DNA from: Clostridiales bacterium
Lineage (GTDB): Bacteria; Bacillota; Clostridia; Christensenellales; UBA1242
DNA length: 59,526 nt
NCBI GenBank assembly: GCA_015069335.1
Contig: SVIU01000002.1
Coordinates: 1 to 59,526, forward strand
Reading direction: 5' to 3'
Every line of letters starts with the position of its first letter. Positions within the stretch are counted from its first letter, which is position 1. The position numbers and the translations under genes were made by a program. The notes under the pieces are model-generated. The model made no database searches. It was not told the origin of the DNA and saw only the letters and a list, made by a program, of their open reading frames with translations. This document shows positions 3,508 to 57,100 of this stretch, piece after piece.

Positions 3508-3522
3508 GAAAGGAGGTCTAAT

Positions 3523-16377: not shown

Positions 16378-16839
16378 ATGCAAAAAATTTTTATAAAACA
16401 AAATGGTTACTACGAGGGGCTAATAAAAGAGTTGTATGCCGGCAACGAAGGTGAGGTGTTGACCTTTATGCAAGAGTTATATCAAGCTAATCTTGTTTAT
16501 CATTTTGATAAAGAGCAATATGAATTTTTGCAAAAATTATATAAAGACGATTTAACACACGCGTCAAGGCTAGCCGAAATTATTGTGCTTATGGGTGGCG
16601 ATCCTAAATATTTAAACAATCAAAAAATTTGGCTTAGCGGGAAAAGTGTTGATTATGTAAAAAGTTATAAACAAATCCTGTACACCAATTTAGAACTTAA
16701 AGAAAAAACAATAATTGACTATAAGACCACCATAAACAAAATAAACGACAATAATATAAATTTAATTTTATCACTTAACCTAGAAGATGAAATTCTGCAC
16801 AAAAATATGATTCTTAGGCAGATAGAAAAACTTAGATGA
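16378..16839 (+). CDS. Putative ferritin-like four-helix-bundle protein (function uncertain)
   Basis: 153-aa ORF with predicted helical repeats carrying E/H residues (EGEVLTFMQELYQ, DLTHASRLAEII, LELKEKTIIDY, EDEILH). No clear SD sequence. Confidence 0.45.
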   Translation: MQKIFIKQNGYYEGLIKELYAGNEGEVLTFMQELYQANLVYHFDKEQYEFLQKLYKDDLTHASRLAEIIVLMGGDPKYLNNQKIWLSGKSVDYVKSYKQILYTNLELKEKTIIDYKTTINKINDNNINLILSLNLEDEILHKNMILRQIEKLR

Positions 16840-16979
16840 AAACATTGTTGAAAAAGAGTAAAAAATGTATAATTTTTCTTTCATAGAAAAATTTGCACAT
16901 GTTAATTCGACACATAAAACACTCGAAGACTAGTGTCGATTTGTTAAATAAGGTATTTAAAAAGTTGAGCAATATAAAC

Positions 16980-25112: not shown

Positions 25113-25203
25113 TAAAAACAAAATAAGGCTGATTTTTGGCTTGGCTAAAATTTGACCTTATTTTTTAACGTTTAAAAAATAGCAATTTGACAAAAATTTT
25201 GTT

Positions 25204-25719
25204 ATGGAAAACAAAAAAGAGTCAAAAAAAACAATTATAATTTTATCATCAGTAATAGTTCTGTTAAGTCTAGTTTGTATTGGTAGTATTATATATAATT
25301 TTATGGGTGGGTTTTATTTTGGCAGAATAGCCGAGTATAACACAATTTTGGGGGAAAAATTAGAAATTGAAGTTGGTGGTGAGGGGGCTTTTGCAAAAGG
25401 CTGCAATTTTTCTGGAGAAACGATTTTGGGCACTGATATAAGGCAAGAGGTATCGCTAAAATTTCAAAACGTGCAAGAGCCGCTTTATGTTAGAGCTAGG
25501 GCAAATGTCTCAAGCGTCCGTGGCGAGTGCATTATTTTTGGATTTACCAATTGGGTGCAACAAAATGACGGATATATTTATTTAAACCAGCCAATTATGT
25601 CAAACCAAAGCATTGGTTTAAGTCAATTTGTTAGACTAAGCAACAATCTTAAGATAGAAGGTGATAAAAACTATATCTTAATGTTTGTAGTAGAAGTAAG
25701 CAAAGAGTCTTGGAATTAA
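25204..25719 (+). CDS. Membrane-anchored hypothetical protein (171 aa)
   Basis: N-terminal KKESKK plus a TM helix, then a beta-rich ectodomain. No SD sequence seen. Confidence 0.55.
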   Translation: MENKKESKKTIIILSSVIVLLSLVCIGSIIYNFMGGFYFGRIAEYNTILGEKLEIEVGGEGAFAKGCNFSGETILGTDIRQEVSLKFQNVQEPLYVRARANVSSVRGECIIFGFTNWVQQNDGYIYLNQPIMSNQSIGLSQFVRLSNNLKIEGDKNYILMFVVEVSKESWN

Positions 25720-29527: not shown

Positions 29528-29548
29528 ATTAAAATAATAAAAAAACAA

Positions 29549-29596
29549 AAAATAAGGCAAAAAATTGAAAAATTATCAAATTTTGCCTTATTTTTT
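29549..29596 (+). terminator. Intrinsic terminator after acpP
   Basis: 14-bp stem AAAATAAGGCAAAA/TTTTGCCTTATTTT followed by a T-run. Confidence 0.75.
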
Positions 29597-29742
29597 ATGT
29601 TTTTTTGTGAATTTATTTGAATTTTTATCAAAATAAAAAAATTAAAAATTTAATTTTTGATCCCTTTTAAATTCAAAAGGCTTGAATTTTTTATTGGTTT
29701 TCGATTTTAATTTAAATTATTATTAAAAACGCATAGATAAAA

Positions 29743-29771
29743 TTGACATTTTTTGTAATTATATATATAAT
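29743..29771 (+). promoter_or_regulatory. Consensus promoter for the giant-lipoprotein operon
   Basis: TTGACA (29743-29748), 17-bp spacer, TATAAT (29766-29771). Confidence 0.7.
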
Positions 29772-29845
29772 ATAATTAAATTTATTACTATTTTGTTGCT
29801 GATAATTTTTAAACAATTTGATCAACATAAATGAGGAGCATATTT

Positions 29846-31240
29846 ATGAAAAAGTTTTCCGTTATTTTGATGGCAATTTTGATTACCGTTTTTGGGGCGT
29901 TTTTTTCAGCTTGTGAAAAAAAAGAATCTAATGCTAAAATAGAGCTAGACAAGTCTAGTGTTTCTATCTATTTGGGGGAAACAGAAAACAATACTGTTGT
30001 AGTTAGGGCAACTACAATTGATTTTTCTACTGAAATGTTGGTTGTTAAATACGACAATACCAACATTGATATTACGCCACGCAAAACATCCGATAACACT
30101 TTTGATTTGATTGTGTCAAGCAAAGTTACTATTGGTACAAATCCAATTATAGTTGAGGTTTCGGCAAAGGGCGCTGAGGCAAACTTTTCTGTAGAGTTGG
30201 TTGTTCCGGTTGAACAAATTGTTGCAGAACAAAACTTGTATGTACCATATGATAATCAATCAACAATGATCAACTTGTATGATCATTTAACCTTTTATCC
30301 AACGGGAACAAAACAAACTGGTGTAACTTTTAGCCTTGCGGAAGAAAGCTCCAATTTTGAAATTAAGGGCAATTATTTAGAAATCAAGGCTGGCTTGCTT
30401 TCGGAAGGTTCTGGACTTGATTTTGGTGAAGAGGTCAGCGTGGTTGTGGACTCCGTTAGCTCCGAAGAGGGTAAGTCAGATGTTGCAACAGAAATGGTTA
30501 TAAAAATCGTTCCAAACATTAAATGGCTTGCCAAGGAGATTGATGTAAAAGTTGAAACTGACAGCGCAAGTTTTAGCAATTTTGAAAACAAAACATATGA
30601 GTTGAATGTAGCAAAAAGCCCATTAGATGGTTCGTATGATTTGGGTACTTTCAAAACACAAATTTTAATTCCAGCAGAATTGGGTATTGATGTGGATGTT
30701 GATAAAAACTTCTCAATTATGGGTGGACAACCAATTCAAAACATTTCCAACATCTTGCAATATGATAGAGAATATACTCAAGAATCGTTAATAAATGGCG
30801 GAGCAACTAGGTTATATGACAAATATGTTTTTATCTTCAGGGTTGATACCTTAAGACAGGGTGTGGGTTGTTTGTCTTTTAAATACACCTACAAAAATTA
30901 TAATGAGAGTGGGTTGGAAACCTCATATGCTTTTTATGACAATACTACCAGTGCAATAGTGTCAAGCATAAATGTTAGTGTTTCTATGCCAATTACCGAA
31001 ATTGATTTTTCAACAACCTGCAATCAAACATCAGTTGGGGCTTCTGTTCAATATCACATTTATCAAAATTATAGTAATGATGTTTTGGGCGGAAAATTTA
31101 TTTTCTCTGCTTTGCCATACGGAACAATTCAAAATAATTTATGTATAAAAATTTTAAAAGGCGGCTATTTGCGCATATTTGACAAAACCGGCAGAGAAAT
31201 TACTGAATACAGCAATCAGGATGCTGTTTATATTACATAA
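29846..31240 (+). CDS. Lipoprotein with Ig-like domains; probably the N-terminal portion of the downstream giant ORF, separated from it by a frameshift
   Basis: GAGGAG RBS (29833-29838). MKKFSVILMAILITVFGAFFSAC contains a lipobox. Ig-like (Big_2-like) segments follow. The 3' end overlaps by 34 nt the open frame of the next ORF. Confidence 0.8.
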   Translation: MKKFSVILMAILITVFGAFFSACEKKESNAKIELDKSSVSIYLGETENNTVVVRATTIDFSTEMLVVKYDNTNIDITPRKTSDNTFDLIVSSKVTIGTNPIIVEVSAKGAEANFSVELVVPVEQIVAEQNLYVPYDNQSTMINLYDHLTFYPTGTKQTGVTFSLAEESSNFEIKGNYLEIKAGLLSEGSGLDFGEEVSVVVDSVSSEEGKSDVATEMVIKIVPNIKWLAKEIDVKVETDSASFSNFENKTYELNVAKSPLDGSYDLGTFKTQILIPAELGIDVDVDKNFSIMGGQPIQNISNILQYDREYTQESLINGGATRLYDKYVFIFRVDTLRQGVGCLSFKYTYKNYNESGLETSYAFYDNTTSAIVSSINVSVSMPITEIDFSTTCNQTSVGASVQYHIYQNYSNDVLGGKFIFSALPYGTIQNNLCIKILKGGYLRIFDKTGREITEYSNQDAVYIT

Positions 31241-31365
31241 ATTTTGAATCCGGTGACACGTTCTATTTTGCTTGCAAGAATGGTTTTGACATTGGTGACA
31301 CTGAAACTTTTTATGTTTCAAGCCTTGACAATTCTCAAATAAGCAATAAAGAAATCACTGTAAAA

Positions 31366-34300
31366 ATGTTGGAGGGAAATTCTGCTTTAGCTTTTGAGCA
31401 GGATGATCCAGCAACTGACAATACAATCGAAGTGGCAGCACAATTGGAAGTAAACATTGTAAAAGGCGAAAGCAAAGAAGTGTTAATATACGCTCCAGCT
31501 GCACTTGTTGAAGATTTTAATGTTTCTGTTACTCCAAAAGAGTTTAATGGCAATAATGATGACTTTTTTGCGTATAGAGTATACGGCAATGAAGTTGGCA
31601 CAAAAGAATATATTATTAGCACCAAAAATGGATACTCTATTAAATTAACCGCTCATACAATTCAAGAAACAACCGAGGCTCAGATAGATCTGGCATCTGG
31701 AGTTCAGTATACTGCGGGAATAGGGGAATATAAATATTCGTCAAGTGGTGATATAATCAATTTATCTTTGCAATTGGGCTATAGCGTTGGATTGAATGTT
31801 ATATTAAATGAAAATGCAAATTTACACGCGTTAACATATTCTTTTTACGAACCAAATGACGCTGCTTATCTAGGCGTTTATGACAAGGACAACCTTGATG
31901 GATTAAAAGATGTCGAGAGTGGCAATTATGATATTGGTGCTGTTACATATTCAAGCTTGAGCACAATTTTAAATACGCAAAACCTTAAAAAAGAAAATCT
32001 TATAACTGGTTTAAAAGAGGGCGTGCTTATCTTATGTGTCCAAATTTATGGACAAACAGTTTTGGCTGATGGAACAATTGGGGCTGATGAGCCTATAATA
32101 AAATATATTTTTATTGAAATATACAATCCTGTAAAAACATTAAGCATAGAAGCGACACATGTAGAGTTAAGAGCCAAAGAAGACTTAATCGACAGTGAGG
32201 CTTCAAAAGAATTATACACTGTTGAATTGGATGCAAAAGCGTTATCAAATGGTGGAGCTGATGCAACTTATGGAAAGATATATATAAACGGTGGTAAAAT
32301 TAACAACAACACCGGGTTATGTACAGTAGAAGTTGGTCAATCTTTTAAAGTTGTTTATGATTATAATACAAACAAAATTACAATAACAGCACAAAAATAC
32401 CTTGCTCCATACAATATTACGTTATTTGCTGGCGATTTTGTTTATTTTACAGATACAATAAATATGGCAAATTTAAAAAAGGAATTTATCAGTGTTCGAC
32501 TTACTATTAGCATGGCCCAAACTGTACAAATGGAAAAAATAAGGGTAAGCAATTTGGATGAGGTTGAGGATAATAACACCAAAGTTGACACTTACGAAAC
32601 ACTTTTCTTAGACACTTTAAAATCCGACATTTTAACTTATAAAATTTTTACAGAAGTTTTGCCAGCGGCAACTTTTAATAAGGATTTAGAATTTGATTAT
32701 GTTTCAACATCAACCAATGCTCAAGCTATTGTCACTATTGATAACTCTGGTTTGATTACTGTTGTTGGCAAAAATGGCGGAACGGGTTATATAACTATAA
32801 AACCAAAATTTTCAACTCAACCAGTAAATATGGTTAAAATACCAGTTGTTATATCAGACGGCAAAACAAGAGAAACGGCATATAAAATCTCGAGTTTGGA
32901 TGATATTGTAGATTCAACAAAACACTATGTGTTAACAGTTCCAACAACCTATGTATTAGACGACAAAACACTTTTTGAGGGCAAAACATTCACTGGTGGC
33001 TTGTACGGTTGTGAAACTTCAGGCGGAGCAAGGGCAACAATAATATTAAAAGGCAAGTCTTTATTTGATAAACTTGGTGCAAATGCTTACGTTGAAGATT
33101 TATATATTTGTGGCGATGTAACAGGTGCTGGCTTTGTGGCAACAGAAAACGCTGGAACTATCAAAAATGTAGAAGTTTCAACATATATTAAAAATGGTGT
33201 TTATGTGCCAAGCTTGTTGATAGCCATAAATAAAGATGGCATCACTTCAGTTGGTGGCATTGTTGGAGTAAACGCAGGAATAATAGAAAATTGTACCTTT
33301 GCTGGTTCTATTTTGATTGAGGACACTAATGCAAATGTGTCAAAATTAGGAGCAATAGCGGGCGAAGGCTCAGCAACCAATTGCGTATTTGTTCAAGCAA
33401 AATTCTTAAGAGTTGCAGAAACAATTGATAGGCTTGTTGCTGACGGCGAAAATTATATAAATGGGTTTATATATACAGGATCAAAATTAGAGAATAAAGA
33501 AGGCATTGCGGAAGCAATATATTCTGCCTACCCATTTGATGGCAATGTAAACATCAAAACGGATGCTGACAAAAAATACAGTTTAAGTATTGATGAAGAC
33601 AAAAAACACGGTATAGTATTCTATTACAAAGCAGAAAATCCACAAAACCAAACAAAAATAGACGACTATAACAAGATTAAAATAACCGATTTATTAAATG
33701 CCACAACATTTGAAGAAGAAGATTTAAGAGTTTTGGCTGTCAACAAGGACGGCACGATTTGCAATTTTATAGAAGTATTAAATGATTCTATTAATATAAA
33801 AGGCGTGGGCGAATTTAAGTTGATTATATCTTCAAAATTCGACTATACAACCAGCTATGAAATCAATATGCTTTCTATGTATTACTTTGATAAATTGACT
33901 TTGCAACAATATGGGCAGGAAATATCTGCTGGCACAACAATATCAATTGTAGATGGTAAAAATTCAATTATTCAATCAACTGAAGGCAACACAACTGAAG
34001 GCATCACGCTTGTTTCAAATAATTTTGAAGTTTTATTTACTTTGGAAAATGGCGGTGTTGCTGTTGACAACAATTTTATAAGCAATAACAGAGTTGGTGT
34101 TCATACAATTTCAATCAATAACAACTGGGATGATTCATGGACGGCAGGACTTACTGTTTCGACTAAAATAAAAACCCCATTTGCTACAAGTTTTAATAAA
34201 ATATTAAACGAGCATAAATTGGGCGAAAATCCAGCTTCTTTCAAAATTATAAAAAGAAACGGAACAACACAAATTACCCCATCAATAACATCTGGCGAAA

Positions 34301-37300
34301 TTGAACCTCAAGATTACTTTAGTTTTGATGTTGTGCTTACTTCGGATGTAGAAGAAGATCAAATTGTTGCTTCAAACATAAAAATATACAATTCAAAAAA
34401 TTATTTAATGAACGATGACGATGTTTTTGACATTTATGTTCAAACAATAGAGGCGGGCAAACAATACAAAATTTATGTTGGCTTGTATGACAGTCAAAAA
34501 GCAAACACTGCATATGTTAACCAAACATACAGAATAGTTGTTCAGGCTTCAAATGGCGGAACTGTTTATGAATGTTTGACAAATGTAAATATGACAATTG
34601 TGCCACAAACCTTAGCAAGCATAAACACAACACTATATAGAGCAACAAGAGTAGTGAATGGTGTGTTGGTGGACAATACAAAACAGGAACCAACTTCAGT
34701 ATTGTTGCCAAGTGATTTTGGTATTTTTGAAATTGACCTTTTCCCATCTTTTGCAACATATGATTATGTAGAAATTGTTGCAACTTCAAACACTATGGCA
34801 ACATTGTCGTTTAGGTTGCAAGAATCAACAAGTGAAACAATTTTCAATGATACAACAACAAGTGGCTCATATGATTCATTAATCAACAAAAACGGTATAA
34901 AAATTTACAACAATGCAAGTTCAAGCACAGACCAAAATGTTGGTAGATATTTTGTTAAGTTGTTTGCAAATTCAACCTATGATCAAGACACGATATTTAC
35001 CATAACCACTACTGCATATTTTGCAAACGAAGCTTTGGGAGCAAAAGCTGTGTTTACATTGTATGTAAGAATGCCAGAAGTGCCACAAGTTAGCATCGAT
35101 GGCAAAACAAAGCACTACACTACACCAACAGAAACTGTAGAAGCAAATGTGTTTGTTTCAAATGATCAAACAAATTTGTCAATTACTCTAGAGGCAAATG
35201 ATCAAAAATCACTAAGCAATGTTGAATGTTTCTACGAAGAAGTTGACAGTACGCAAACTAATTATAAACAATATAAAGTAACTGTAAAATTTGGTGAAGG
35301 ATATGCATTAGATTCTTCAAACAGTTCGTCATTTAAAATTATGGTTGAAAGCCAAAAAATCATAACTGGTCAAGTAGTAACAGTGAAAGGCTATGTTGAT
35401 GTTTATGTTGTGGACTTTATTTTAAATGAAGACAGTGTTGTAATATATGATGCGCCAGCAAACATTTTCAGCATTACATCTTTAAAACGACGAGAACTAA
35501 AATTGCAAATTAATCCAGAAAAAATTCAAGGGTTGGAAGATGCAATCAGTTTGTTTGCAAGTCAATATTATTATGTAAATGATTATTCAAACTTTAATGT
35601 TTGGTCAAGCGAACAAAACCAATACAACTTGCAAAATGATGCGGAGGCTTATGCTCCACAAATAATTTTGGCTCAATCATTGTCTTATGTAAACGGCAAT
35701 TACACATTACCAATCTTAAAAACGGACGGAACCTTTGGCGATTATAATGTTGCAGACTATCAAGAGTTTAGCAAATATGTAATTTTTGAATATGAAGATG
35801 GCAAGTTGTATGTGAAAGGTGGGGATTACGTTGGCGATGTCCAAATGTTGTTAGAAATTAAATACCAAATGCCTGATTTTAGAATATTCACTTACGAATA
35901 TAGATTTACATTAAGCAATAAAATTTTCTACACAGAAGATATGCCAAAAGAAATTGCAACAAATGAAGATTTCCTTGCTTTAAAAGAAGAAACAACGGCA
36001 GAAGATTACATTTTAACAAATGACATCAATCTTTATGAATACACTGCTTTTGAAAATACAGATATGATAAAATCTCTTGACGGTAACAACTACACAATCA
36101 ATATTCACTCATATCAAAAAATCGAAGACGGTGCTGCTAATTATGCGTTGTTCAACAAAATTTCAAGCCTTACAACAATAAAAAATGTAACCATAAATTT
36201 ATACTACTTAACAACTATAGATATTGGTGAAAATGTAACAAGTACAAATGTTGCAGGACTTGCTATAAATAATTCGGGCATTGTGTATAACACCGAGGTT
36301 ATTACTTACAAGTCAATAAATTCACAAAGCGCGACATCTAATACTTATGGCTTAAAAGTCAACCAAGACATTGACGCAACGGTTGCAGGTTTTGTTGTTG
36401 ACAACCAAGGCTCAATCACCAATAGCCGTGTCGGTGGTGACCAAAAGCTCATTACAAAACTTAGTTACAAAACAGTAACAAGAACAATACAAATTGGCGA
36501 AACAACTGAAAATGTAGAATTGGTAGAATTAGACAAAGTTGATCAATATTATCAAGATTTGACAATGTTTTCTATATTGGCAAGCGGAACAATTTCTGCA
36601 TTCTGTCAAACAAACAGCGGAACAATATCAAGTAGTTTTGCGAAAAATATTGAAATTGTAAACAATTACAACCGTGAAGAAACAAAAGCAACCGCCGGAT
36701 TTGTAAACACAAACAACGGCAAAATTACAATGAGCTATGTTCAAGGCGCTTATGGCTCAAGCAGCAATGTTAGGGCTGAATATGGCGGAATTGTTTCTTC
36801 GGGAATTTCTGCAGGCTTTGTATATGAAAATAATAGAATAATTACAGATAGTTATAGTAATATAAAACTTACAAATACAAAACAACAAACAAGTCGTATT
36901 GGTGCAGGTTTTGTTTATCACAATGCCGAAACTGCAAAAATTGAAAGATGCTTCTCTTATTCAATTATTGTTACAAACAATGTTACTCAAAGCAACTTTG
37001 CTGGCATTAAAGATTTTGGCGGCTATAATAATGAGGGAACAATAAACCATAGTTATTATTATGCTGGGGTAGAAGACTCAGGCACTTCAATTGAAACGTC
37101 TTTAAATACAGGCATAAACAAAATAACAAACCCAACAAACAAAGACGAATATTATGGCTTTAGCTTTGAGGGTTTAAAAAATTTTGGAACATGGCAAATG
37201 TCTTTAACTCGTGGCGCTATCTTGGTGAGTGCCGAGGATATAACACATTCAGTAAGAGCAAAATATGAGCAAATTCAAGGTGCCGAAAAAGTTACAATAT

Positions 37301-47166: not shown

Positions 47167-47252
47167 AAAAAATAAGAAATAAAAAAGAAAAACAAAACTT
47201 AAAAAAAATAAAGAACAAAAAACAAACAAAAAGAGAAAAACAGGAGAGAACT

Positions 47253-50200
47253 ATGAAAAAAATATTAAGCATAGTAACATTTGTAATTTTAATATTTAGC
47301 GGAGTGCTTATGTCGGGCTGCGGTCAGGACTATAGTTCTCTCTCGCTTTCTTTTGACTTGAACAATTCTAGCAAAATAGAGTTGTCGGTTGGCGATGAGG
47401 CAAAAGAATATTTTGTAAAAATAGAAAATTATTACGAGTTTGATCCCGTATTTACTTTTTCTTTTGCCGAAGATGTTGCCACAGTAAAGTCATATCAAAA
47501 AGCGACAAATGATGGGGTTTACAAATTCTCGATAACACCATTAAGGCCGGGCGAGACAACTCTCAGCCTTGACCTTTCGGGCTTAAACAAGCCATTAAAA
47601 ATTCCTGTGAGGGTTACAAATGACATTGTTGGGTTTGCTCCAACAAATCAAATTTATGCAACAAGGGGAAACACCTTGCAACTAAATTCAAGTTTGTTTA
47701 CTTTTACACCACCAGACACTTCTCAAACTGGTTTAAATTTTGATCTTAAAACAGTTTTTGATGGTTTGACATTAGATTCAAACACAAACACTTTGACAGT
47801 ACCAGCAAATTATACTGCGGCTGAAATAGTTTTAAATGTAACAAGCAAGTCAAATGCATCTATTTTTGAAGAGATAACAATAAAAGTTGTTGATCCAATA
47901 GATATTCAAGATTTTCAAGTTGCATACGCAAGTCAAGATATAACCAATCCAGAAGACTTTGCTGCTCAGCAAGATGTTGTGTTTGATAATCAAGAAACTC
48001 CACTTGTTTTTACAATAAGCGAAGCACATAGCTTTCAAAAAAGATTTTATGTTCAAGCCGACGAGCAAACATGGACAAAAAATTATTTGGTTGACATAAC
48101 TTTAGAAAACAATCAATCCACGCCAAATGTGTTTTTGATTGGTGGTGGGGTTTTGCAACTAAAACAACAGGCTTCAGATTTTGATTTTACTGTTGTTGCA
48201 AATGACATTTCTAGTCAGGGCTTGCTTAAATTCAAGTTTTATCAAGCCGACTATCCAGACAATTGTGTCGAACAAATTGTGTATTTAAAAGCAACATGTG
48301 TGCCAACAGCAATAAAAATTAATGGTCAAGATTCTTTGCAACCAGTTGAGTTGTACACAAACAGTGATGACGCAAAAGAATATGCATTTTCGGTTGCACC
48401 AAGCAAGGCTCAAAAAGATGACTACAATTATTCTTTTCAATTTTATAGTGTAACAACCAATACTGCTCCAGAATGGCAAAACATTGTTAGTGAAGCAAAC
48501 ATCAAAACACAAATTCCAGCTGCGCTAGAGGTTAAATATGGCGGAGCAAAAATTGTTGATTGTGGAAATGAATATGATTTGTCAAATTTAAACACAATTC
48601 TTTCACTTAAAGCATTAAACTTTTTGCCAGATACTTACTTTGCAATAAAAATCACTTGTTTCCAACAAGTGGATGGTGTTCGCACAGATCTTTGTGAAAA
48701 TGTTATATATTTTCAAGTGATTGAAGGCGTTATGCATTTTTCTGTCAATTCAGAATACAAAGAAGGCATATATCTAGATTTAAGAACTTTTGATCCAAAT
48801 GGAAGCGGTATCCAATTTGCTGGCTTTGATGCCAATGGTAGCGTAGGAAATCTTACTATCACTCAAATTGGTCAAGGCACAAATGTTTGTCAAATGACAC
48901 AGGTTGGAAAGGACGCAAAATTAAATATTATTCCACTATATGAGGGTGTTTGTGAATATTTAATCACAACCGAAAATGGCAAAGAAACAAGATTAAAAGT
49001 TTTTGTTATCAAAACTATTCAGCAAAAAGATTTTTCAATCACACTTGATCAAAATGGAAATCAAAATATTTCTGCTTACGATGAGATTGCAAAAATAGAC
49101 GGCGGACAAAAAACTCTAACGAGCCTTACAATAAAAGGTTTAAATAGTCAAGCCAATTTAAAAATAAATATAAATAGTGATGCCAAAAATTTGGATTTGA
49201 GCTATGAGTGCGAAATAACAGTTGATGCCACAGCGAGTGCATATTTTGAAATGCAAAATGGCAAAACCATTGTTACAAAAAATAATTTTACTGGAGATAA
49301 TACAACTTATTGGGCGAGCGTCAATTTGACAATATACAAAGTTGACACAGAACCAACCAGTGCAACTTATTTGCAAAGAACAGCCATTCCAATTCAGGGC
49401 AATTACAATATACAACTCAAAAGCGTTAACTATGTAAAAGAGCTAGCACTTTATACCAACAACAATCAACAAAGTGACGATAGAACCAAAATTGTTTCTA
49501 TATACAACAAAAATGAATTGTCGTATATAAACGAGAATTTGGCTACTGTATACTTTTATTTAGATTTAACACTTGGCGAAAATACTGCACAGCTAAATAG
49601 CGAGTTTAATTTAAGCAACTGGAAGTTTTCTTCAAATTTAAATTCAAATTATTCATTAACAGAACTTTCAAGTGGTCAAGCACAAGTTGGCAACGTGGGA
49701 ACATTTGAGTTTTTGCCACAAAGAGAATCAAATGATTTTGTTGGTAGATTTACATATGAATATTCTAGCGTTATGATAATCAGTCAAATTACTGTTGTGT
49801 TTAATTTTAAAGATCAAAACACTGGCGTAGATTTTTCTTCTTCAGTTGAACTAAAAATTGAAAAGTATATAAATGTTGATTCTATTTGGCTAGATAGCCC
49901 AGAAACAAGCATTTATCTTGACAATACAGCGCAATATTCAACAAAAACCATCAGCACCTTTATTTTGCCAGCAAATGCAATGTGCAAAGATGTTAGAGTG
50001 ATGGTTGACACAGTTTACACCAACTGCATAAAGGTGGATGTAAACCAAAATATTATTAAGCTTACTTACCTAAGTGCGGGTGCGGGAATTATAAGAATCT
50101 TCCCAGTTTCAACTATGAAAACCAATTCTTATACCAATGCCAACGGTGATTATTATTATCATTTGGCTTTAAAGTTTGTGGCTGCAGACGGGGCATCTCA

Positions 50201-53200
50201 AGAAACTGCAATTAGGTTAACAAGTTATCAAGACATTTTAAACATAAAAGCGGAAAAGCACTATTTTGTTGATGCAAATATTGATTGTTATGGTCAACCA
50301 ATAGATTTGCCAGCGCTAGAGGGCTCATTAAGAGGAACTACAGAGGCAAAACAAATTAAAAATGCGTCAGGGGGTTTTGAAGCAAACCCAGCGTTTGCAA
50401 CATGCAAGCAATCGGGCAGCATAACCAATTTTGTTGTAACAGCAAACAATAGTCACAATTTTGGTATGTTTAGAGAAATTATGACTGGAGCAGAAGTATA
50501 CAACATAAAACTTTCTGGAACATTCCAATTAAATGGACAAGATTCATATGCTGTTACCAACGAAACAAAAATCGGTTTGCTATGTGGCATAAACAATGGA
50601 TCAATAAGCAATGTTTTGGTGGAAATAAACAAGGCAAACACTTTAACCATAACCAATGATGGAGCAAACAAAAACGTATATGTTGGCATTATGGCGGGCG
50701 TTAATAATGGCAAAATCACAATTGACGACAATGCAAAACTTTATACGCTTTTGGTTAGAGTTGACAAAAATCATTCGTTGCGAGTTATTTTAAACAAAGT
50801 TACTGGTGTGTTTGGTGGAGTTTGCGGTTTAAATACTGGCGAAATTTCTCATACCCGTACTAATCCAGAGCCAATGACAATTGGCGAATATGGAATTTCT
50901 GCACACATAAATGCTTCTGTTGAGGCAAATTATGTGGGTGGTTTGGTTGGAGAAATAGCAAAAGGTGCAAGCGATACTAAACTACAAGGCATTAAAATTA
51001 CGGGAGAAATAACCAACACGTCTACAAGTGGATATGTTGCAGGTTTGGTTGGTAGAGTAAACGACAATCAATCAGAAATAAAAAACAACACAACTCGTGT
51101 GTTTGTTAGAGGTTATAATTCTGTTTCGGGCTTGATTGGTTTTATTAATCTTGGTGTAAGCTGCACGTCTTCAATAACTGACAACAAAGTTCAAGCCACT
51201 GATGATGGAACAAGAAAATCCATAGATGCATCTTTGCTTATTAGACACTATGACGAATTACCTGCAGTGGGTGAAGAAATATATTTGTGTAATGATTTAA
51301 CAGAAGACACAACTCAAATTGCTAATTCCAACACTTTTGAAACATATTTCTTTGATAGAGCGTTAGAGGGAGATGCTGTTGCGGCGGCTAATGGTGACGA
51401 GGTGTCTATAAATATTAACAGAAGCCTAGGTGTTGAAAAATACTATGGTGAAAAAATAACAATACACTCAAACGGATCAATCATTAAAAAGCAAATCAAA
51501 TGGAATGATACAAATTACGGAACAGATGATCAAATAGTTGTAACCTTAAATGAATTTATTTTAGCAGCATTTAAAAAAGCATTAAATTCAAATGATCAAG
51601 TATTTGTTGATAATACATTAGATTCAGTTAGCCTGTTAACTGTAGCAGGTGTTACTGCAAAAGAAGTTCAACTTTTAATAGACAAAAAAGAGTTGGCAAC
51701 AGTAGAAAATTATGGAAGGCTAATCAATCTAAACGGATGTGGAAAAATCATATTAACCATTCAGAGTTCTCTAAACTATAAAAACACCAAAAATGTATAT
51801 ATCACAATAACAAATTACTACAAAGAAATAAATATTTATCAAGACAAAGAAAAAACGCAAGCGGCAGATACAACTGTTCAAGTTGTAAACAAGCAAACAA
51901 CAGTGTTGTATATGGATTGTTCTGCAGGTAACTACAATTACAATTCTACACCAATAAGGCTTGCTAGCAATTTGGATATTGACATTAATGCAAGTGTTGC
52001 AACAAACGCTGACAAAGTGGCTATTGATGTTTATGATCAAACCATATTTGTACAATCAAAAGATTACACAAATTTTACAAGCACGCTAACATTTGAAACA
52101 TATTACAACCAAGAAGGCAACAGATTTTTAAAAGACACATCAAAAATTGTAAACTATTCAGACAACAGTCTTACTGCGTACATATTTGTTCCAGAAAGCA
52201 ATACCATTGCAGAGGAAAACAAAGAATATTTAAGAAAAACTTTGCAGGTTTTAACTGGCATAGAAAATATCAAGGTTGACAAAACAATTATAGAGGCAAT
52301 GCCAACCGACAAAATAGAAATGTCAGTAACATATTATGCATATGGTAGTGGAGATAATTTAAATTATGCGTTTGAATTTACAAATGAGGGGCTCGAAGAC
52401 TATATTTATGCTTTAAACGCCGAAGATAAAGTTATTGACGAAAATGGTAAGGTTTTATTTACAATAATTAAATCAGATAAACAAGCCATAGCTGGTCAAG
52501 CCAACAAATATAAACAACATTTTACTATCTCAATGAATAGTGGTGACTTGAGCGTTTATGAGAAATTAAAAAATTGCAAAATTCAACTAACATTCTCTTC
52601 TGAATTGGCAAGTATGCAAAATGCGAACACAACAATTGAATATGGTCCAGAACAAATTTCTGCCGTTCTCATCAACAACTTTAGTTTTGAAACAAACGAC
52701 GGAATGATTGATGAAGCAAATCGTATAGTTTATGAAGATAGAGTATTGTATTCGGGAAGACAAGTTTCAACTGGTGATCTCAATGTTGCAAATGCCTATG
52801 TTTATACAAAATGTAGCGAGTTTGATTATGTTGATATCACTCTCAATACAGGCTCTACTTTAGGATATTTAGCATTATTAGAAAATGTTGACGATCAAGG
52901 CAATGCGCTTGTTGACGATCAAGATAATAAATATGCTAAAATTTCAACCAAATCAGTTTACACATCAATTTCTGGTGTTGCAACTATGAGGGTTTATAAA
53001 AATAACTTAAACTTAAATGTAGCAGGTGATTACTTATTTATAAGCATTCTTTATTCTATACCACAAGAAATTCCAGATAACACAATAATAAATTTAAATT
53101 ATACCTTCTACAAACGCAATTCAGAAAATATATATGATGTATGCTTTATTGCACAAGAAAATTTAATTGCAAAGGCTGGAAACAAAGTAACATTTGTTGT

Positions 53201-56200
53201 TGACGGACAAAAAATTGTTGAGGGACACTATAATTTGGTTAGAGGCAAAACATACAGCCTTACACCAACAATTGTTGGTTATGAAGAGTCTGAAGTTTGT
53301 TTTGAAGCGTCAAATCCTGCATTGATTAATATACAAAAAACCGGCAGCGAATATTATTTAACAGTTACAAATGCTGGGTTGGCATACGGTGATGATGCTG
53401 ATGCTTATTATACTTCGGTAAATTCTTTTGGTAAAAAAGATAACGACGATTCAAAAATTGGAAGAATAACAACAACCAACTTTAAAATTTTTGAATGTTT
53501 GATGGATCAACAAAACTTGTTTACTGAAAATCAAATTGCGTTAAGGCTTTTAGAAAGTGTTGATGTTAGAGAAGTCCTTGCACAAAAATTAAATATTGAT
53601 TATACAGATGTTGCAAAGGACGGCAAAGAATCAACAATTGAAAGCTTTAAAGAAAATGCAAATTTTTATATTCAACTTGACAGTGGCGAAACAATAGAGT
53701 TACAAACAGGCGAAAGTTTTGAAAGGGAAACATTTAAGGTTGACGGTTTTAACATAATGCCAAAAATAATTTTGCCTGAAAGTGATTTCAAAATTGTTGT
53801 AAACTGTGATATTTCTTATGAAAAAGGCTTGCCAAAAATTGAAGCACTTGAAAACAATTTTGCAACAGTTGATGTTAATGTGTTCTTAAATTCGTTTGAA
53901 GACAAGCCTGCACCAATATTTGACTATCAAGATTTATTAGAAATGGTTGATGATGGCTACTATAGGCTTGTTGACAATATCGACATAAGAGCAAATCAAT
54001 TCCAAATGATAACAGCAAAACCAAAAATGTTGGATGGAAATGGATATTCAATTAATATTTGGGGTGGAGATATAAGTATTGACGAGGAAACGGGTGGCAG
54101 GTTTGCTTTATTTGAAACAATAAATGAAAGTGCAATATTCAAAAATATAAAAGTTGTTATTAAAAACAACTTAAAAGTTTTATACCCAGAACAACAAGGC
54201 ACGCAAGGTGCAAACATTGCAATTTTGGCAGTAAACAACAATGGAATAATCACCAATTGTTCAATTTTGGGTGAGGGCAATTTGCAGGTTGAAGTTCATG
54301 GCGGAGTTTCTGTTATTGAGCAATCATATTTTGGTGCTATATGTACACATAATAATGGATATATAACCAATAGCCAAGTCGAGTGCAACATTAAGGTTGA
54401 CGGTTTATCTCTTGGCGGAATTGCAGCAACAAATGCTGGGCATATTGCTAGCACTTATATTAAAAACTCAAGAATTGAAAATGCAACCAAAACAACAAAT
54501 GAAAACATTGTAAGTGGTGGATTTGTATACAATAATAGTGGTTCAATTTATACAAGCTTTATTGAGGGCATAAATTACAATAGAATCTTTTGTGAATATG
54601 CTGGAGATGACAAGAGTATAAATTCAAAAATAATTTATACTTCAACAAAAGTTGCAGCATTTGCTTATTTAAATAGCGGAACAATAACTGATTGTTATTC
54701 AAATATACCGGTTGTTTCATCAAACCTTTGTTCTGGATTTGTTGGAACAGCGCAAGGTGGTCAAATAACAAGAACATTCTCGTTAAGCCATCTTAATTCA
54801 AACAATGATCTAAATTATGGTTTTGTAATAAGATACGAAAATGCGGTTTTTGAAGAATGTTATTTTGTCATAGAAGACGACTTAATAAATTATGATACAT
54901 CTACAACAAATTACACAATACAAGAAGGTCAATATGTGGGTAAAATTGATGGTGTTGAACCAGCATCAATAAAGGATTTCAACCCGTATAATTCTCGCAT
55001 TGCTCAGTTTAAAAATGATGATTATAAATTTAAAAACTTTATCACAAACGATCAAAAAGCAAATGGTGTATGGTTCTTTGTTTCTGACACAACTCAAGAG
55101 GGTACAGCTCTAGACTATCTAACTTATAGTTTAACAAATGATGAATTTAAAAATTATGATGGAACAAATCAAAGCTTTAGTGCAAAACGCTTGCATTTGG
55201 TTGCTCCAAACATAAAAGCATATTCACAATATGAATTTGTTTTTGAATCAGAAACAGATTTGGCAACAGGCGAATATAATTATGAATTAAAAGATAGTCC
55301 AAATTATGGCTCAAAATACAATCCATATATTATTTCCAACGCTGTAGAACTTGAAGAGTTCTTTAATCAAAGAAACAAAGGTTCTTATGAATACTTCAGA
55401 ATAGTGTCGGATATTGACTATGTCGAAGATGATGTATTCACATCAAAATTATACAATAAATCTCTTGTGGGCAATATTGAGGGAAATGGTTTAACAATTG
55501 AGGGCTATGCTGTAAACACAATAGAAACTTATTTATCAGCAGGTTTTGTTGCAAACTTTGGTACAGAAAGCAATAATGCTTCAGTTATAAAAAATCTTAC
55601 GTTAATTCCAAGATATATAAACTTGCCAAACTGCAGTTATGTTGGTGCGTTTGCTGGTAGCTTTGTCAAAGCTGATGCCTTTAATATTAATATAATTGCT
55701 CCAGATGTGGCAATTGTTGGTAAAAACATTGTAGGTGGCTTGGCAGGCGTAACAACGGACAACAATAACATAAAGAACTGTTTTGTTGATATTAAAGTAA
55801 AAGTTGCTTACTACAACACACAAGTAATAAACCAAAAAGCTCATGACGAAAGCATATTATACAAAGAAAATGGAGTAGATAGAGCAAAAGCTTCTTATGC
55901 TGGAGCAATTGTTGGTTTTGCTGGTGGTATAACAAATGTTTATAATGTAAATATTGGCGATAATGTAATAACCTCAGCAATGATTGCAGGCCTAATGTTT
56001 GGTGGAATTGGAGCTTTTGCAAAAATAACAAACATTGATGCAAATTTAAATTCATACTCTCATCAAGTGGTTGCCTATGTTTATGCGGGTTTAATTGCTG
56101 GAGAAAACCGTGGCGAAATAAATAATATAAGCATAAATTCCACAATTTTAAACAAAGAAATGTTCTCTTGCCATCCAATTACTCCTCTTGCTATTGGTGG

Positions 56201-56939
56201 TGTGGCAGGTCTTGGCAATGGTGGAAAACTTTACAACTTAACATCAACCGATGGCTATGCGGTAATTGGTGCAAAATATTTTGAAGAAAAAATCCACAAC
56301 CCATACATTGCAAAATATGTTGGTGGTATTTATGGCTATGCATACGACATAACAATTGATAATATTGAAATTGGCGGAAATATTACTAAAGATGCAAACG
56401 GCAATAAAACTGGCATAACTTCAAATGACAAAGGCCTTGCAATTGTTGGTGGAAACTATGTTGGCGGTTTGGTTGGAAATTTGTACAGCAAAGTTGCAAC
56501 AAACGCTTCAATAATCAAAAATGCTTATGTTGAATTGCTTAACAGTGTTTCATATATAAATGCCGAAGGAAACAGCACCACAGAAAGTTTAATTTTCTCA
56601 TATGTTAGCGAAGCAACTGGTGAATATCTTCCAAACTTTATCTTTGATGACAACAAAACTCAAAGCTTTGGTACAATTTTTGGTGGATTTAATCAAGGAT
56701 TAAACACTACCAATTATGCAAACAATAAAATTATCACCAATGGCAAATTAAAAGCGGAATTTGAAGAATTTGGTTTGCGTACGGAAGATATAGGAGATTA
56801 TATTGGAGTACATACTACAGCAAAATATAACGCTTTAAATGGTGGAGTGAGTGGTGATTATAAAATTTCTGATAATTTTGATTGGACATTTAAAAACCTT
56901 TCTACAAACACTGTATACGACATAATAGATTATGAATAA
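47253..56939 (+). CDS. Giant lipoprotein (3228 aa), paralogous architecture: Ig-like domains plus three GLUG-type beta-helix modules
   Basis: CAGGAGAG RBS. MKKILSIVTFVILIFSGVLMSGC contains a lipobox. Module heads lie at about 50180, 53895 and 55300. Repeats include IGLLCGINNGSISNV, VGIMAGVNNGKITID, LGGIAATNAGHIAST and VGGLAGVTTDNNNIKNC. Confidence 0.95.
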   Translation: MKKILSIVTFVILIFSGVLMSGCGQDYSSLSLSFDLNNSSKIELSVGDEAKEYFVKIENYYEFDPVFTFSFAEDVATVKSYQKATNDGVYKFSITPLRPGETTLSLDLSGLNKPLKIPVRVTNDIVGFAPTNQIYATRGNTLQLNSSLFTFTPPDTSQTGLNFDLKTVFDGLTLDSNTNTLTVPANYTAAEIVLNVTSKSNASIFEEITIKVVDPIDIQDFQVAYASQDITNPEDFAAQQDVVFDNQETPLVFTISEAHSFQKRFYVQADEQTWTKNYLVDITLENNQSTPNVFLIGGGVLQLKQQASDFDFTVVANDISSQGLLKFKFYQADYPDNCVEQIVYLKATCVPTAIKINGQDSLQPVELYTNSDDAKEYAFSVAPSKAQKDDYNYSFQFYSVTTNTAPEWQNIVSEANIKTQIPAALEVKYGGAKIVDCGNEYDLSNLNTILSLKALNFLPDTYFAIKITCFQQVDGVRTDLCENVIYFQVIEGVMHFSVNSEYKEGIYLDLRTFDPNGSGIQFAGFDANGSVGNLTITQIGQGTNVCQMTQVGKDAKLNIIPLYEGVCEYLITTENGKETRLKVFVIKTIQQKDFSITLDQNGNQNISAYDEIAKIDGGQKTLTSLTIKGLNSQANLKININSDAKNLDLSYECEITVDATASAYFEMQNGKTIVTKNNFTGDNTTYWASVNLTIYKVDTEPTSATYLQRTAIPIQGNYNIQLKSVNYVKELALYTNNNQQSDDRTKIVSIYNKNELSYINENLATVYFYLDLTLGENTAQLNSEFNLSNWKFSSNLNSNYSLTELSSGQAQVGNVGTFEFLPQRESNDFVGRFTYEYSSVMIISQITVVFNFKDQNTGVDFSSSVELKIEKYINVDSIWLDSPETSIYLDNTAQYSTKTISTFILPANAMCKDVRVMVDTVYTNCIKVDVNQNIIKLTYLSAGAGIIRIFPVSTMKTNSYTNANGDYYYHLALKFVAADGASQETAIRLTSYQDILNIKAEKHYFVDANIDCYGQPIDLPALEGSLRGTTEAKQIKNASGGFEANPAFATCKQSGSITNFVVTANNSHNFGMFREIMTGAEVYNIKLSGTFQLNGQDSYAVTNETKIGLLCGINNGSISNVLVEINKANTLTITNDGANKNVYVGIMAGVNNGKITIDDNAKLYTLLVRVDKNHSLRVILNKVTGVFGGVCGLNTGEISHTRTNPEPMTIGEYGISAHINASVEANYVGGLVGEIAKGASDTKLQGIKITGEITNTSTSGYVAGLVGRVNDNQSEIKNNTTRVFVRGYNSVSGLIGFINLGVSCTSSITDNKVQATDDGTRKSIDASLLIRHYDELPAVGEEIYLCNDLTEDTTQIANSNTFETYFFDRALEGDAVAAANGDEVSININRSLGVEKYYGEKITIHSNGSIIKKQIKWNDTNYGTDDQIVVTLNEFILAAFKKALNSNDQVFVDNTLDSVSLLTVAGVTAKEVQLLIDKKELATVENYGRLINLNGCGKIILTIQSSLNYKNTKNVYITITNYYKEINIYQDKEKTQAADTTVQVVNKQTTVLYMDCSAGNYNYNSTPIRLASNLDIDINASVATNADKVAIDVYDQTIFVQSKDYTNFTSTLTFETYYNQEGNRFLKDTSKIVNYSDNSLTAYIFVPESNTIAEENKEYLRKTLQVLTGIENIKVDKTIIEAMPTDKIEMSVTYYAYGSGDNLNYAFEFTNEGLEDYIYALNAEDKVIDENGKVLFTIIKSDKQAIAGQANKYKQHFTISMNSGDLSVYEKLKNCKIQLTFSSELASMQNANTTIEYGPEQISAVLINNFSFETNDGMIDEANRIVYEDRVLYSGRQVSTGDLNVANAYVYTKCSEFDYVDITLNTGSTLGYLALLENVDDQGNALVDDQDNKYAKISTKSVYTSISGVATMRVYKNNLNLNVAGDYLFISILYSIPQEIPDNTIINLNYTFYKRNSENIYDVCFIAQENLIAKAGNKVTFVVDGQKIVEGHYNLVRGKTYSLTPTIVGYEESEVCFEASNPALINIQKTGSEYYLTVTNAGLAYGDDADAYYTSVNSFGKKDNDDSKIGRITTTNFKIFECLMDQQNLFTENQIALRLLESVDVREVLAQKLNIDYTDVAKDGKESTIESFKENANFYIQLDSGETIELQTGESFERETFKVDGFNIMPKIILPESDFKIVVNCDISYEKGLPKIEALENNFATVDVNVFLNSFEDKPAPIFDYQDLLEMVDDGYYRLVDNIDIRANQFQMITAKPKMLDGNGYSINIWGGDISIDEETGGRFALFETINESAIFKNIKVVIKNNLKVLYPEQQGTQGANIAILAVNNNGIITNCSILGEGNLQVEVHGGVSVIEQSYFGAICTHNNGYITNSQVECNIKVDGLSLGGIAATNAGHIASTYIKNSRIENATKTTNENIVSGGFVYNNSGSIYTSFIEGINYNRIFCEYAGDDKSINSKIIYTSTKVAAFAYLNSGTITDCYSNIPVVSSNLCSGFVGTAQGGQITRTFSLSHLNSNNDLNYGFVIRYENAVFEECYFVIEDDLINYDTSTTNYTIQEGQYVGKIDGVEPASIKDFNPYNSRIAQFKNDDYKFKNFITNDQKANGVWFFVSDTTQEGTALDYLTYSLTNDEFKNYDGTNQSFSAKRLHLVAPNIKAYSQYEFVFESETDLATGEYNYELKDSPNYGSKYNPYIISNAVELEEFFNQRNKGSYEYFRIVSDIDYVEDDVFTSKLYNKSLVGNIEGNGLTIEGYAVNTIETYLSAGFVANFGTESNNASVIKNLTLIPRYINLPNCSYVGAFAGSFVKADAFNINIIAPDVAIVGKNIVGGLAGVTTDNNNIKNCFVDIKVKVAYYNTQVINQKAHDESILYKENGVDRAKASYAGAIVGFAGGITNVYNVNIGDNVITSAMIAGLMFGGIGAFAKITNIDANLNSYSHQVVAYVYAGLIAGENRGEINNISINSTILNKEMFSCHPITPLAIGGVAGLGNGGKLYNLTSTDGYAVIGAKYFEEKIHNPYIAKYVGGIYGYAYDITIDNIEIGGNITKDANGNKTGITSNDKGLAIVGGNYVGGLVGNLYSKVATNASIIKNAYVELLNSVSYINAEGNSTTESLIFSYVSEATGEYLPNFIFDDNKTQSFGTIFGGFNQGLNTTNYANNKIITNGKLKAEFEEFGLRTEDIGDYIGVHTTAKYNALNGGVSGDYKISDNFDWTFKNLSTNTVYDIIDYE

Positions 56940-56990
56940 AGAGTAAAAAACAAATAAAGAGTTAGTTTTTTATGATATTTACTTAGAAAA

Positions 56991-57020
56991 AAACACAAGC
57001 ACAGAGCTTGTGTTTTTTTT
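56991..57020 (+). terminator. Intrinsic terminator ending the giant-gene operon
   Basis: Stem AAACACAAGC/GCTTGTGTTT, loop ACAGA, then a T-run. Confidence 0.85.
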
Positions 57021-57072: not shown

Positions 57073-57100
57073 CAAAAAAAGGGCACTAAAAAGTGCCCTT
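57073..57100 (-). terminator. Intrinsic terminator of spoVG
   Basis: Stem AAGGGCACT/AGTGCCCTT with a T-run on the minus strand. Confidence 0.85.

Follow-up and report, generated by a model that had tools for sequence, protein, structure and literature searches.

Two paralogous giant lipoproteins with predicted Ig-like stalks and GLUG-related beta-helix modules are encoded by a 27-kb operon of gut Clostridia

A 59,526-nt stretch of the genome of a Clostridiales bacterium (contig SVIU01000002.1, assembly GCA_015069335.1; referred to below as the window) contains two adjacent giant genes, here termed A and B, which make up a 27-kb unit on the plus strand (29743–57020). Analysis of these genes and their relatives indicated that A and B probably encode two paralogous, co-transcribed surface lipoproteins, which would extend as long fibres without enzymatic activity from the surface of a gut Clostridium of the Gram-positive type.

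Inspection of the unit revealed a perfect sigma-70 consensus promoter, followed by two co-directional genes and a strong terminator. The promoter (TTGACA-17-TATAAT; 29743–29771, +), identified by a pattern search, is located in a 300-nt gap downstream of an acyl carrier protein (ACP) gene and a terminator-like hairpin. The exact pattern occurs at two sites in the 59.5-kb window, compared to 0.04 expected. The second site (1671–1699, +) lies upstream of the genes encoding S7, EF-G and EF-Tu, and the giant operon and this translation-gene cluster therefore share promoter quality. The hairpin with a U-run found 3′ of the ACP gene (aaggcaaaa...ttttgcctt attttttat; 29540–29600, spotted by eye) supports the view that the operon is a transcription unit separate from the M23 peptidase and ACP genes.

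The list of open reading frames (ORFs) of the window contains three long plus-strand frames in this region: 29831–31240 (469 aa), 31366–47166 (5,266 aa) and 47253–56939 (3,228 aa). The first two are parts of gene A, whose likely start is the ATG at 29846, placed 7 nt past a GAGGAG ribosome-binding site (RBS; 29833–29838). Translation from this codon gives MKKFSVILMAILITVFGAFFSAC, in agreement with the N-terminus of the intact homologous protein P0041 described below. The third frame (47253–56939, +) is gene B, encoding a 3,228-aa lipoprotein (MKKILSIVTFVILIFSGVLMSGC). The two genes are separated by an A-rich spacer of 86 nt (47167–47252, +) containing the RBS AGGAGA, in which a scan for terminator-like sites on the plus strand found none. 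Within this region (47166–47240), a degenerate A-rich unit of ~11 nt was detected (TRF: 6.6 copies, 66% matches), which may alternatively be read as two 33-nt copies. Downstream of gene B, folding predicted an intrinsic terminator (56986–57020, +), composed of a 15-bp stem that includes A and U tracts and a subsequent U-run (ΔG −17.5 kcal/mol, z −5.1; none of 200 shuffled sequences folded equally well). A preliminary description of this DNA, made from the sequence alone, had proposed one transcription unit, bracketed by a perfect promoter and a strong terminator and with a hairpin-free A-rich linker between the genes, and the promoter, terminator and spacer analyses all agree with it. Transcription of both genes from one strong promoter suggests that A and B may be used jointly. 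The G+C content of the unit is similar to that of the rest of the window and thus gives no hint of foreign DNA.

The 173-nt gap between gene B and the convergent spoVG gene contains two separate hairpins, which terminate the plus strand (56986–57020) and the minus strand (57079–57100), respectively. Owing to its A and U tracts, the terminator of gene B could also act bidirectionally.

Comparison with a contig from a different assembly (L096, 59,317 bp; JGI 3300031555) explained the division of gene A into two frames. The two sequences are 99.996% identical over 23,322 nt, and their sole difference is a single gap: L096 has one extra A. At the frameshift site (31229–31236, +) the window reads TATATTAC and L096 reads TATAATTAC, one A being missing from the window between 31232 and 31233. 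The window therefore carries a one-base deletion, reflecting either an error in the consensus or a variant within the population. The product of the intact gene on L096 (P0041) is 5,773 aa long and falls into the same 90%-identity cluster as the 5,266-aa product. The part of gene A preceding the deletion (29846–31240) encodes the signal peptide, the lipobox and the first Ig-like units. The part following it (31233–47166) is open from 31204, thus overlapping the end of the first frame, and is continuous with the first part in relatives: the fused protein could be aligned without gaps across the junction with four intact homologs (5,527–5,726 aa). Judging from these alignments, the biological gene A is a single ORF of 5,773 codons, as expected from the earlier proposal of a frameshift-split protein of ~5770 aa.

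Two other explanations of the split were considered and rejected. No slippery heptamer of the X XXY YYZ type was seen by eye at 31220–31240, the orthologs are continuous and L096 contains one more A, which does not fit programmed frameshifting. Decay into a pseudogene does not fit a 15.9-kb frame that stays open past the shift in a genome of ~34% G+C. An assembly artefact (a chimera or collapsed repeats) might be suspected, as the proteins contain repeats and are known from metagenome assemblies, but this explanation is effectively refuted. Direct DNA repeats in the 27 kb do not exceed 70 nt (at 71% identity), and the A-rich spacer is the sole tandem array; the contig from the other assembly is identical, apart from the one A, over 23.3 kb; and full-length colinear B-type ORFs are present at 45 other loci, together with near-full-length colinear homologs of A.

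Both proteins start with a signal peptide ending in a lipobox (...VFGAFFSAC in A and ...FSGVLMSGC in B, with the lipobox residues FFSAC and LMSGC). The signal peptide and lipobox Cys are present in all 46 assembled B-type sequences and in most A-type homologs, so the lipobox assignment, proposed earlier for the two window proteins, is supported by their relatives as well. The genes lgt and lsp are not located within the window. A motif search of A and B found no HExxH, no sortase signal (LPxTG or LP.[TSA]G) and no C-terminal hydrophobic stretch, as had been stated in the preliminary description, and no protease domain was detected. In the Pfam scan no family reached an E-value of 0.01 on either protein, and the NCBIfam scan gave nothing significant. 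Thus, these scans of A and B revealed neither Peptidase_M26 (the catalytic domain of M26 IgA1 metalloproteases), nor SLH, CWB2 or any known S-layer family, nor families of the CAZy type. Sequence and profile searches of PDB chains with A and B also yielded nothing. Every database name seen for relatives was “hypothetical protein”.

The structure of the N-terminal part of B (residues 1–1100) was predicted with AlphaFold2 (AF2), using an alignment of 8 sequences (mean predicted local distance difference test score, pLDDT, 70). The model is all-beta from residue 31 to ~985 and comprises ~9–10 beta-sandwich units of 90–110 aa (47343–50207, +). A Foldseek search of the PDB with this model returned 275 matches at E<1e-3, the best being NUP210 (2e-23), with axonemal Ig-array proteins, DSCAM, titin I65–I70, contactins and cadherins among the others. 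The Ig arrays of the S-layer proteins Sap, EA1 and SbsB were also matched. The Ig-like repeats previously proposed to follow the lipobox were therefore recovered in the structural comparison, and their units are strongly diverged (self-hhalign probabilities of at most 11%). The N-terminal ~1,100 aa of A and B are colinear (hhalign probability 100%, E 2.6e-44, 936 columns), and on the basis of this colinearity with the B model the corresponding ~1,000 aa of A (29918–32980, +) are probably Ig-like too. When hhalign was run against Ig-array profiles, B 1290–2215, the linker between B modules II and III, the C-terminus of B and the tail of A gave no match.

Distal to the Ig-like array, both proteins contain repeated modules. 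From the window proteins, a hidden Markov model (HMM) of the repeating coil was constructed; it describes coils of 20–25 aa with the consensus YVGGFVGTNNGTITNSYVEGNI. Its matches form three clusters in B (aa 1106–1265, 2321–2517 and 2944–3099) and ~7 in A (aa ~1097–1163, 2139–2349, ~2600–3000, ~3150–3600, 3765–3856, 4149–4348 and 4841–5007), which amounts to ~10 modules and not the nine originally counted. The start of a module may be marked by a head of the pattern NPY.I...Y.L..DIDL...(D/E)GNG..I. Three clear heads were detected in B (aa 988, 2217 and 2685) and two in A (aa 2040 and 2498), and weak ones at A 1077, 4037 and 4767. The earlier statement that each module opens with a conserved head is thus valid for about five modules, while the rest lack a clear head.

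In B, module I (approximately 50214–51122, +) was delimited by the coil matches at aa 1106–1265 and the HMM of head I. Module II (53901–54872, +) opens with the head FDYQDLLEMVDDGYYRLVDNIDI...LDGNGYSINI, and module III (55305–56522, +) with YGSKYNPYIISNAVELEEF...YFRIVSDIDY...IEGNGLTIEGY. In A, module I (approximately 32980–33580, +) rests on the coil matches at aa 1097–1163. Module II (35950–37180, +) has a head of the B-II type at aa 2040 (head HMM, E 2e-14) and five coil matches at aa 2139–2349. Module III (37324–38920, +) was recognised by motif matches and by its head LGSKYNPIIIRDAQEF...YRLTNDIDL...LEGNGLTIKNL (head HMM, E 4e-7). These are followed by an A-specific extension (39070–44965, +), in which GG(L/I/V) motifs and coil-HMM matches form ~4 clusters, designated modules IV–VII (approximately 39070–40690, 40930–41530, 41830–43180 and 43930–44965).

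An AF2 model of B 2190–3228 contains two confidently predicted blocks (B 2219–2540 and B 2690–3090; pLDDT 85–93) built from strands of 3–4 residues, which correspond to modules II and III. The best match of this model in the PDB, as determined by Foldseek, was a “putative IgA1 protease” of B. ovatus (3n6z; E 3e-4, probability 1.0, target-normalised TM-score 0.53), followed by the beta-solenoid of a serine-rich repeat protein (SRRP) of L. reuteri (5nxk; E 1e-3, probability 0.99) and the IgA1 protease of S. pneumoniae (6xja/6xjb/7uvl; probability 0.96–1.0). Similar beta-helix proteins were retrieved from BFVD, one of them a “putative IgA1 protease” of a phage.

The relationship to GLUG proteins was also examined by profile comparison. 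The Pfam GLUG model (PF07581) matches four stretches of A between residues 3058 and 5777, one of them in module VI, with a best score of 12 bits (E 0.31) against a gathering cut-off of 20.5; B gave no match. A profile of the B 2190–3228 alignment, on the other hand, matched proteins annotated with PF07581 at E-values of 9e-13, 6e-10 and weaker. With P0023, whose score on the GLUG model is 204 bits, hhalign produced an alignment that spans the two heads as well as the coils (probability 98.3%, E 2e-14, 484 columns). These results support the prediction that the modelled modules fold as right-handed beta-helices of the IgA1-protease/GLUG type, the relationship being remote. The GLUG assignment made from the repeat motif was therefore borne out by fold and profile comparison, but not by the Pfam model at its own cut-off.

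Conservation was analyzed in an alignment of the 46 B-type sequences, with a threshold of at least 93%. This analysis identified 121 conserved positions, nearly all of them occupied by structural residues, including 55 G, 18 N, 10 F, 8 Y, 8 I and 5 P. One E and one R, both situated in a head, were the only residues of their kinds; no D or H was present, and the sole K is residue 2 of the signal peptide. This pattern is that of a scaffold rather than of an active site. Within B, conservation is highest in modules II and III (mean identity to the residue of the window protein 0.34–0.41, compared to 0.15–0.25 for the stalk), which makes it probable that they provide functional surfaces rather than mere spacers.

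These data bear on the alternative in which the beta-helix modules act on carbohydrates, as polysaccharide lyases or hydrolases, and the two proteins would form a surface-tethered, multi-enzyme scaffold for glycan degradation. The Foldseek matches do include a fucoidan lyase, PL6 alginate lyases, GH55, a pectate lyase and the tailspikes of phage depolymerases (E 6e-3 to 0.1), and pectate-lyase-like phage proteins were found in BFVD. However, the matches of the lyase type have probabilities of 0.1–0.6 and low TM-scores, compared to 0.97–1.0 for the beta-helices of IgA1 proteases and SRRP. Taken together with the lack of conserved D, H and K residues in the B-type sequences and of any CAZy-type Pfam family (PL1, PL6, GH28 and GH55 were among those looked for), this makes an enzymatic scaffold decidedly unlikely. 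The beta-helix of the S. pneumoniae IgA1 protease is an N-terminal domain that has no catalytic function and moves to gate the active site, and the catalytic His and Glu residues are located in other domains (PMC7695701).

The paralogy of A and B, proposed in the preliminary description, was confirmed. In addition to the colinear N-terminal parts, BLASTP aligned A 1264–2940 with B 1440–3036 (E 3e-40 over ~1,900 aa, 22% identity), and the heads at A 2040 and A 2498 are of the B-II and B-III types, respectively. These three lines of evidence indicate that A consists of a B-like core (aa 1 to ~3030) extended by ~2,700 residues, which comprise ~4 further modules and a tail.

The C-terminal tail of A (728 aa; 44980–47163, +) is rich in Thr (12.5%) and Tyr (7.8%) and resembles the Ig-like stalk in composition. 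No Pfam family was found in it. A phmmer search of 1.84 billion representative proteins gave A itself as the sole match, and a BLAST comparison with all A orthologs gave one weak match, between the last ~290 aa and the C-terminus of an ortholog (E 8e-6, 21% identity). The view that the last ~700 aa of A are repeat-free, Thr/Tyr-rich and devoid of recognisable motifs was thereby upheld. Since the tail matches almost nothing across the orthologs, the distal end is the fastest-evolving part of A. When the last ~1,000 aa of each partner ORF at 39 other loci (L006–L057) were scanned, the Listeria-Bacteroides repeat Flg_new was detected in three (best E 1.6e-56) and GLUG above threshold in another three, the rest being without Pfam matches. 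Almost none of these tails resembles that of the window protein, and the tails of some orthologs are related to one another. It appears that the distal parts of the A-type partner proteins have been swapped or have diverged between species.

A long filament with a C-terminus of this kind recalls polymorphic toxins, and A might be an effector that delivers a variable C-terminal toxin in contact-dependent competition. The lack of relationship between the 728-aa tail and the tails of its orthologs, and the variation of tails between species, would agree with such a role. Against it, no toxin family was found by Pfam in the tail of A or in the 39 partner tails, and phmmer linked the window tail to no protein other than A; no pre-toxin or cleavage motifs were recognised; gene A is not followed by a small ORF of the immunity type, since gene B begins after 86 nt; and the composition of the tail is similar to that of the Ig-like stalk. 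This role is highly improbable.

The distribution of the two genes was examined by homolog searches and by scanning a single genome of each GTDB species for a sequence pattern. A word-indexed search found 8 homologs of B and 9 of A, all unnamed or “hypothetical protein” and all from metagenome-assembled genomes of Clostridia/Clostridiales. The pattern scan identified 72 loci in 72 species-representative genomes. Of these, 70 are labelled as uncultured Clostridia, Clostridiales, Eubacteriales, Firmicutes, Lachnospiraceae, “Christensenella sp. UBA...”, Catabacter or just “bacterium”; the two exceptions bear labels from outside the Firmicutes (Gastranaerophilales and Eggerthellaceae). Where sources are named, they are gut or rumen (human, Hadza, goat). 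At 39–40 loci a B-type ORF of 2,900–3,700 aa (mostly 3,100–3,400 aa) lies directly downstream of another large ORF, which in ~9 cases is not an A-type gene but encodes a VirB4-like ATPase. Single A-type ORFs of 3,900–6,400 aa are present at L060–L076, and upstream of some of them lie M23 and ACP genes, an order shared with the window.

In the window, the pair is preceded by genes encoding Mfd, a peptidyl-prolyl isomerase, a flippase-like protein, an M23 peptidase and ACP, and followed by those for SpoVG, MurC and L31. The same spoVG-murC-L31 order follows the B-type gene in the closest relatives of the window, and rpoB-rpoC follows it in many others. The preliminary description regarded such a pair as unusual in a housekeeping neighbourhood. 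Core genes do adjoin it, but it is not an oddity of one genome, being conserved throughout the clade. Comparison of related genomes, which had been suggested as a check, showed that the two genes are usually adjacent and that the distal tail is variable. The pair is thus a core, vertically inherited feature of a clade of uncultured gut Clostridia and not an island.

Several arrangements of these loci differ from that of the window. The B-type gene is located directly upstream of rpoB-rpoC in many species (L011–L057, e.g. L015, 13557–20836), and in two species (L062 and L071) the A-type gene directly precedes the S7/EF-G/EF-Tu genes (in the window, A is situated ~22 kb downstream of these genes). 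It seems that, when genomes are rearranged, the giant genes move together with the rpoBC/str region.

The conserved position also has to be considered in connection with another explanation, in which A and B build the cell envelope, forming an S-layer-like coat or spacer layer that is anchored by lipid instead of SLH or CWB2 domains and has a structural housekeeping role. This explanation overlaps with the fibre interpretation. It is favoured by the conservation in 72 species-representative genomes, with rpoB-rpoC, S7/EF-G or spoVG-murC adjoining, by a promoter as perfect as that ahead of the S7/EF-G genes, and by the S-layer Ig arrays among the structural matches of the stalk. On the other hand, A and B contain no SLH, CWB2 or known S-layer family, and proteins of 3–6 thousand aa with a hypervariable tip are atypical of lattice-forming S-layer subunits. 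Codon adaptation is only moderate: 0.59 for the short first part of A and 0.62–0.64 for the rest of A and for B, compared to 0.78–0.82 for translation genes. A purely structural coat seems unlikely, though less so than the other alternatives.

For the surface fibres that we consider probable, the following mode of action is proposed. Each precursor would be exported by Sec and would receive a lipid at the lipobox Cys, so that its N-terminus stays attached to the external side of the cytoplasmic membrane. The tandem Ig-like domains, which occupy the N-terminal ~950 aa, would constitute a flexible stalk of a few tens of nm (~4 nm per domain) that crosses the wall. This stalk would bear stiff right-handed beta-helix rods with flat binding faces (3 in B, ~7 in A), each module being a rigid rod of several nm (~0.48 nm per coil). 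When fully extended, B might measure on the order of 100 nm and A possibly more, and both would reach well past a Gram-positive wall. A would end in the 728-aa tip, which diverges so fast between species that it is no longer recognisable. Both this variable tip and the conserved rods may bind ligands on other cells, on particles or on host material, or may hold an outer envelope layer. To the extent that sequence features allow a role to be assigned, it is most likely binding (cell-cell, cell-particle or cell-host adhesion, or the holding of an envelope layer), and catalysis is unlikely.

Several observations weigh against this interpretation: (i) a structural role in the envelope would explain the strict conservation next to core genes no less well than a classic adhesin would; (ii) the fold of the modules rests on two of ~10 modules modelled (B II and III), plus one stalk; (iii) ~900 aa in the middle of B (1290–2215), the matching part of A, A 4450–4700 and the tail lie outside the assigned folds; (iv) the right-handed beta-helix is also a scaffold of polysaccharide lyases and hydrolases, and lyases, GH55 and tailspikes appear, with low probability, further down the Foldseek list; (v) the alignment used in the search for conserved residues covered B, with A outside the test; and (vi) the moderate codon adaptation argues against the variant in which the fibres are an extremely abundant coat protein, while discriminating poorly between the hypotheses.

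The proposed architecture combines features of several known groups of proteins. The GLUG domains (PF07581) of the M26 IgA1 protease ZmpA of S. pneumoniae (6xja/6xjb/7uvl) and of BACOVA_03286 of B. ovatus (3n6z) resemble the window modules in possessing a head and coils of 20–25 aa and in their predicted fold. Unlike the M26 IgA1 proteases, however, A and B have no M26 catalytic domain, HExxH motif, G5 domain or LPxTG anchor, and in contrast to GLUG proteins they iterate the modules 3–7 times in proteins of 3–6 thousand aa, are anchored by an N-terminal lipid and remain below the Pfam GLUG cut-off.

The SRRP of L. reuteri is a surface adhesin of a Gram-positive gut commensal, in which a right-handed beta-helix is the ligand-binding part. 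Its beta-solenoid (5nxk) provided the second-best structural match of the window modules, but A and B differ from it in their anchoring and lack serine-rich repeats, LPxTG and nearby accessory Sec genes; the identity is 11–13%. Giant Ig-array and S-layer proteins (Sap and EA1 of B. anthracis, SbsB of G. stearothermophilus) share with A and B a long tandem array of beta-sandwich Ig-like domains, whereas in A and B no Pfam Big, S-layer family or SLH is detectable and the Ig units are combined with beta-helix rods. Filaments of polymorphic toxin and contact-dependent inhibition systems (Rhs, CdiA, MafB) are, like A, very long proteins with a lineage-variable C-terminus. In the case of A, however, no toxin domain, immunity gene, two-partner or type VII context was found, and the N-terminus is a lipoprotein signal.

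Literature searches (GLUG, giant proteins, Christensenellales) found no description of the A/B protein family. The folds and the general idea of a giant surface protein combining Ig-like and beta-helix parts are already known. Not found described were the N-terminal lipid anchor, the iterated divergent rods of the GLUG type, the orphan tip, the occurrence as a paralogous adjacent pair and the clade-wide conservation beside core genes. An architecture of lipid anchor, Ig stalk, GLUG-type rods and orphan tip is unusual among the giant surface proteins of Gram-positive-type bacteria. The coding cost of 27 kb, together with conservation in at least 72 species-level genomes, suggests that the pair probably has a central part in the contact of these cells with their environment. 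It also represents an annotation blind spot, as no Pfam or NCBIfam model is significant on either protein and the relatives are all named “hypothetical protein”, and proteomics, imaging and genetics would have a concrete target in it.

The gut bacteria of the family Christensenellaceae are heritable and associated with health. Methanobrevibacter smithii colonises the flocs formed by Christensenella minuta (PMC7002349). Whether or not the window organism belongs to this family, a conserved pair of giant adhesins would be an obvious candidate for mediating such floc and methanogen contacts. A more far-reaching possibility is that A and B, as paralogous lipoproteins on the megadalton scale, form a clade-defining and hitherto unrecognised envelope organelle of Christensenellales-type gut Clostridia: a composite fibre or spacer layer, whose conserved rods would serve cell-cell contact (e.g. 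flocculation and the partner attachment underlying syntrophy with methanogens) and whose fast-evolving tip would set partner or host specificity, with the VirB4-like ATPase perhaps aiding biogenesis. In its entirety, this scheme is speculative and rather unlikely.

The VirB4-like ATPase is encoded in the window at 11549–14275 (+; 908 aa). It scores 571 bits on NF045975 (cut-off 590) and matches the Pfam families P-loop_TraG, DUF87 and AAA_10. Its N-terminus is hydrophobic, with one segment detected by a scan and two transmembrane helices seen by eye. The gene is surrounded by housekeeping genes, and no other conjugation genes were seen there. Orthologs were also found at L036, L039, L042, L044, L045, L047, L049, L052, L054, L089, L090 and L092. 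Such orthologs (55–60% identity; at L045 a 171-aa fragment, 71%) are located directly upstream of the B-type gene in nine species loci and in 3 of 19 metagenome loci. At the remaining 16 metagenome loci, no ORF of at least 1,150 aa is present within the available downstream flank.

This association raises the question of whether the lipoproteins could be mating or contact adhesins, functionally coupled to the ATPase and providing surface contact for a domesticated apparatus that resembles conjugation (type IV secretion) systems. The presence of the 908-aa protein in the window and the direct adjacency at nine species loci and three metagenome loci speak for this idea. Yet the 16 metagenome ATPase loci without a large ORF in the available downstream flank do not fit it, and in the window the ATPase gene is 15.5 kb away from the pair, with glmU-like, pth and mfd genes in between. 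Furthermore, no coupling protein, VirB6- or VirB8-like gene, relaxase or boundary of an integrative and conjugative element was seen, and the adjacency may just reflect common residence in the rpoBC/str neighbourhood. We regard this role of the pair as very unlikely.

The ATPase gene is followed in the window by a gene (14374–16302, +) encoding a soluble Lys/Gln-rich protein of 642 aa without Pfam or NCBIfam families. Weak homologs of this protein (23–28% identity) also follow the ATPase elsewhere, directly at L078 and L079 and after one ORF at L077. The 494-aa product of a gene near the beginning of the window (96–1580, +) contains BspA-type leucine-rich repeats (Pfam LRR_5) as well as a hydrophobic segment at its N-terminus. 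Similar LRR_5 proteins occur near the giant genes or the ATPase at L001 (~25135–25413), L010 (~16457–16864) and L077 (13766–16306), and the 494-aa protein may be another surface protein of the same cells.

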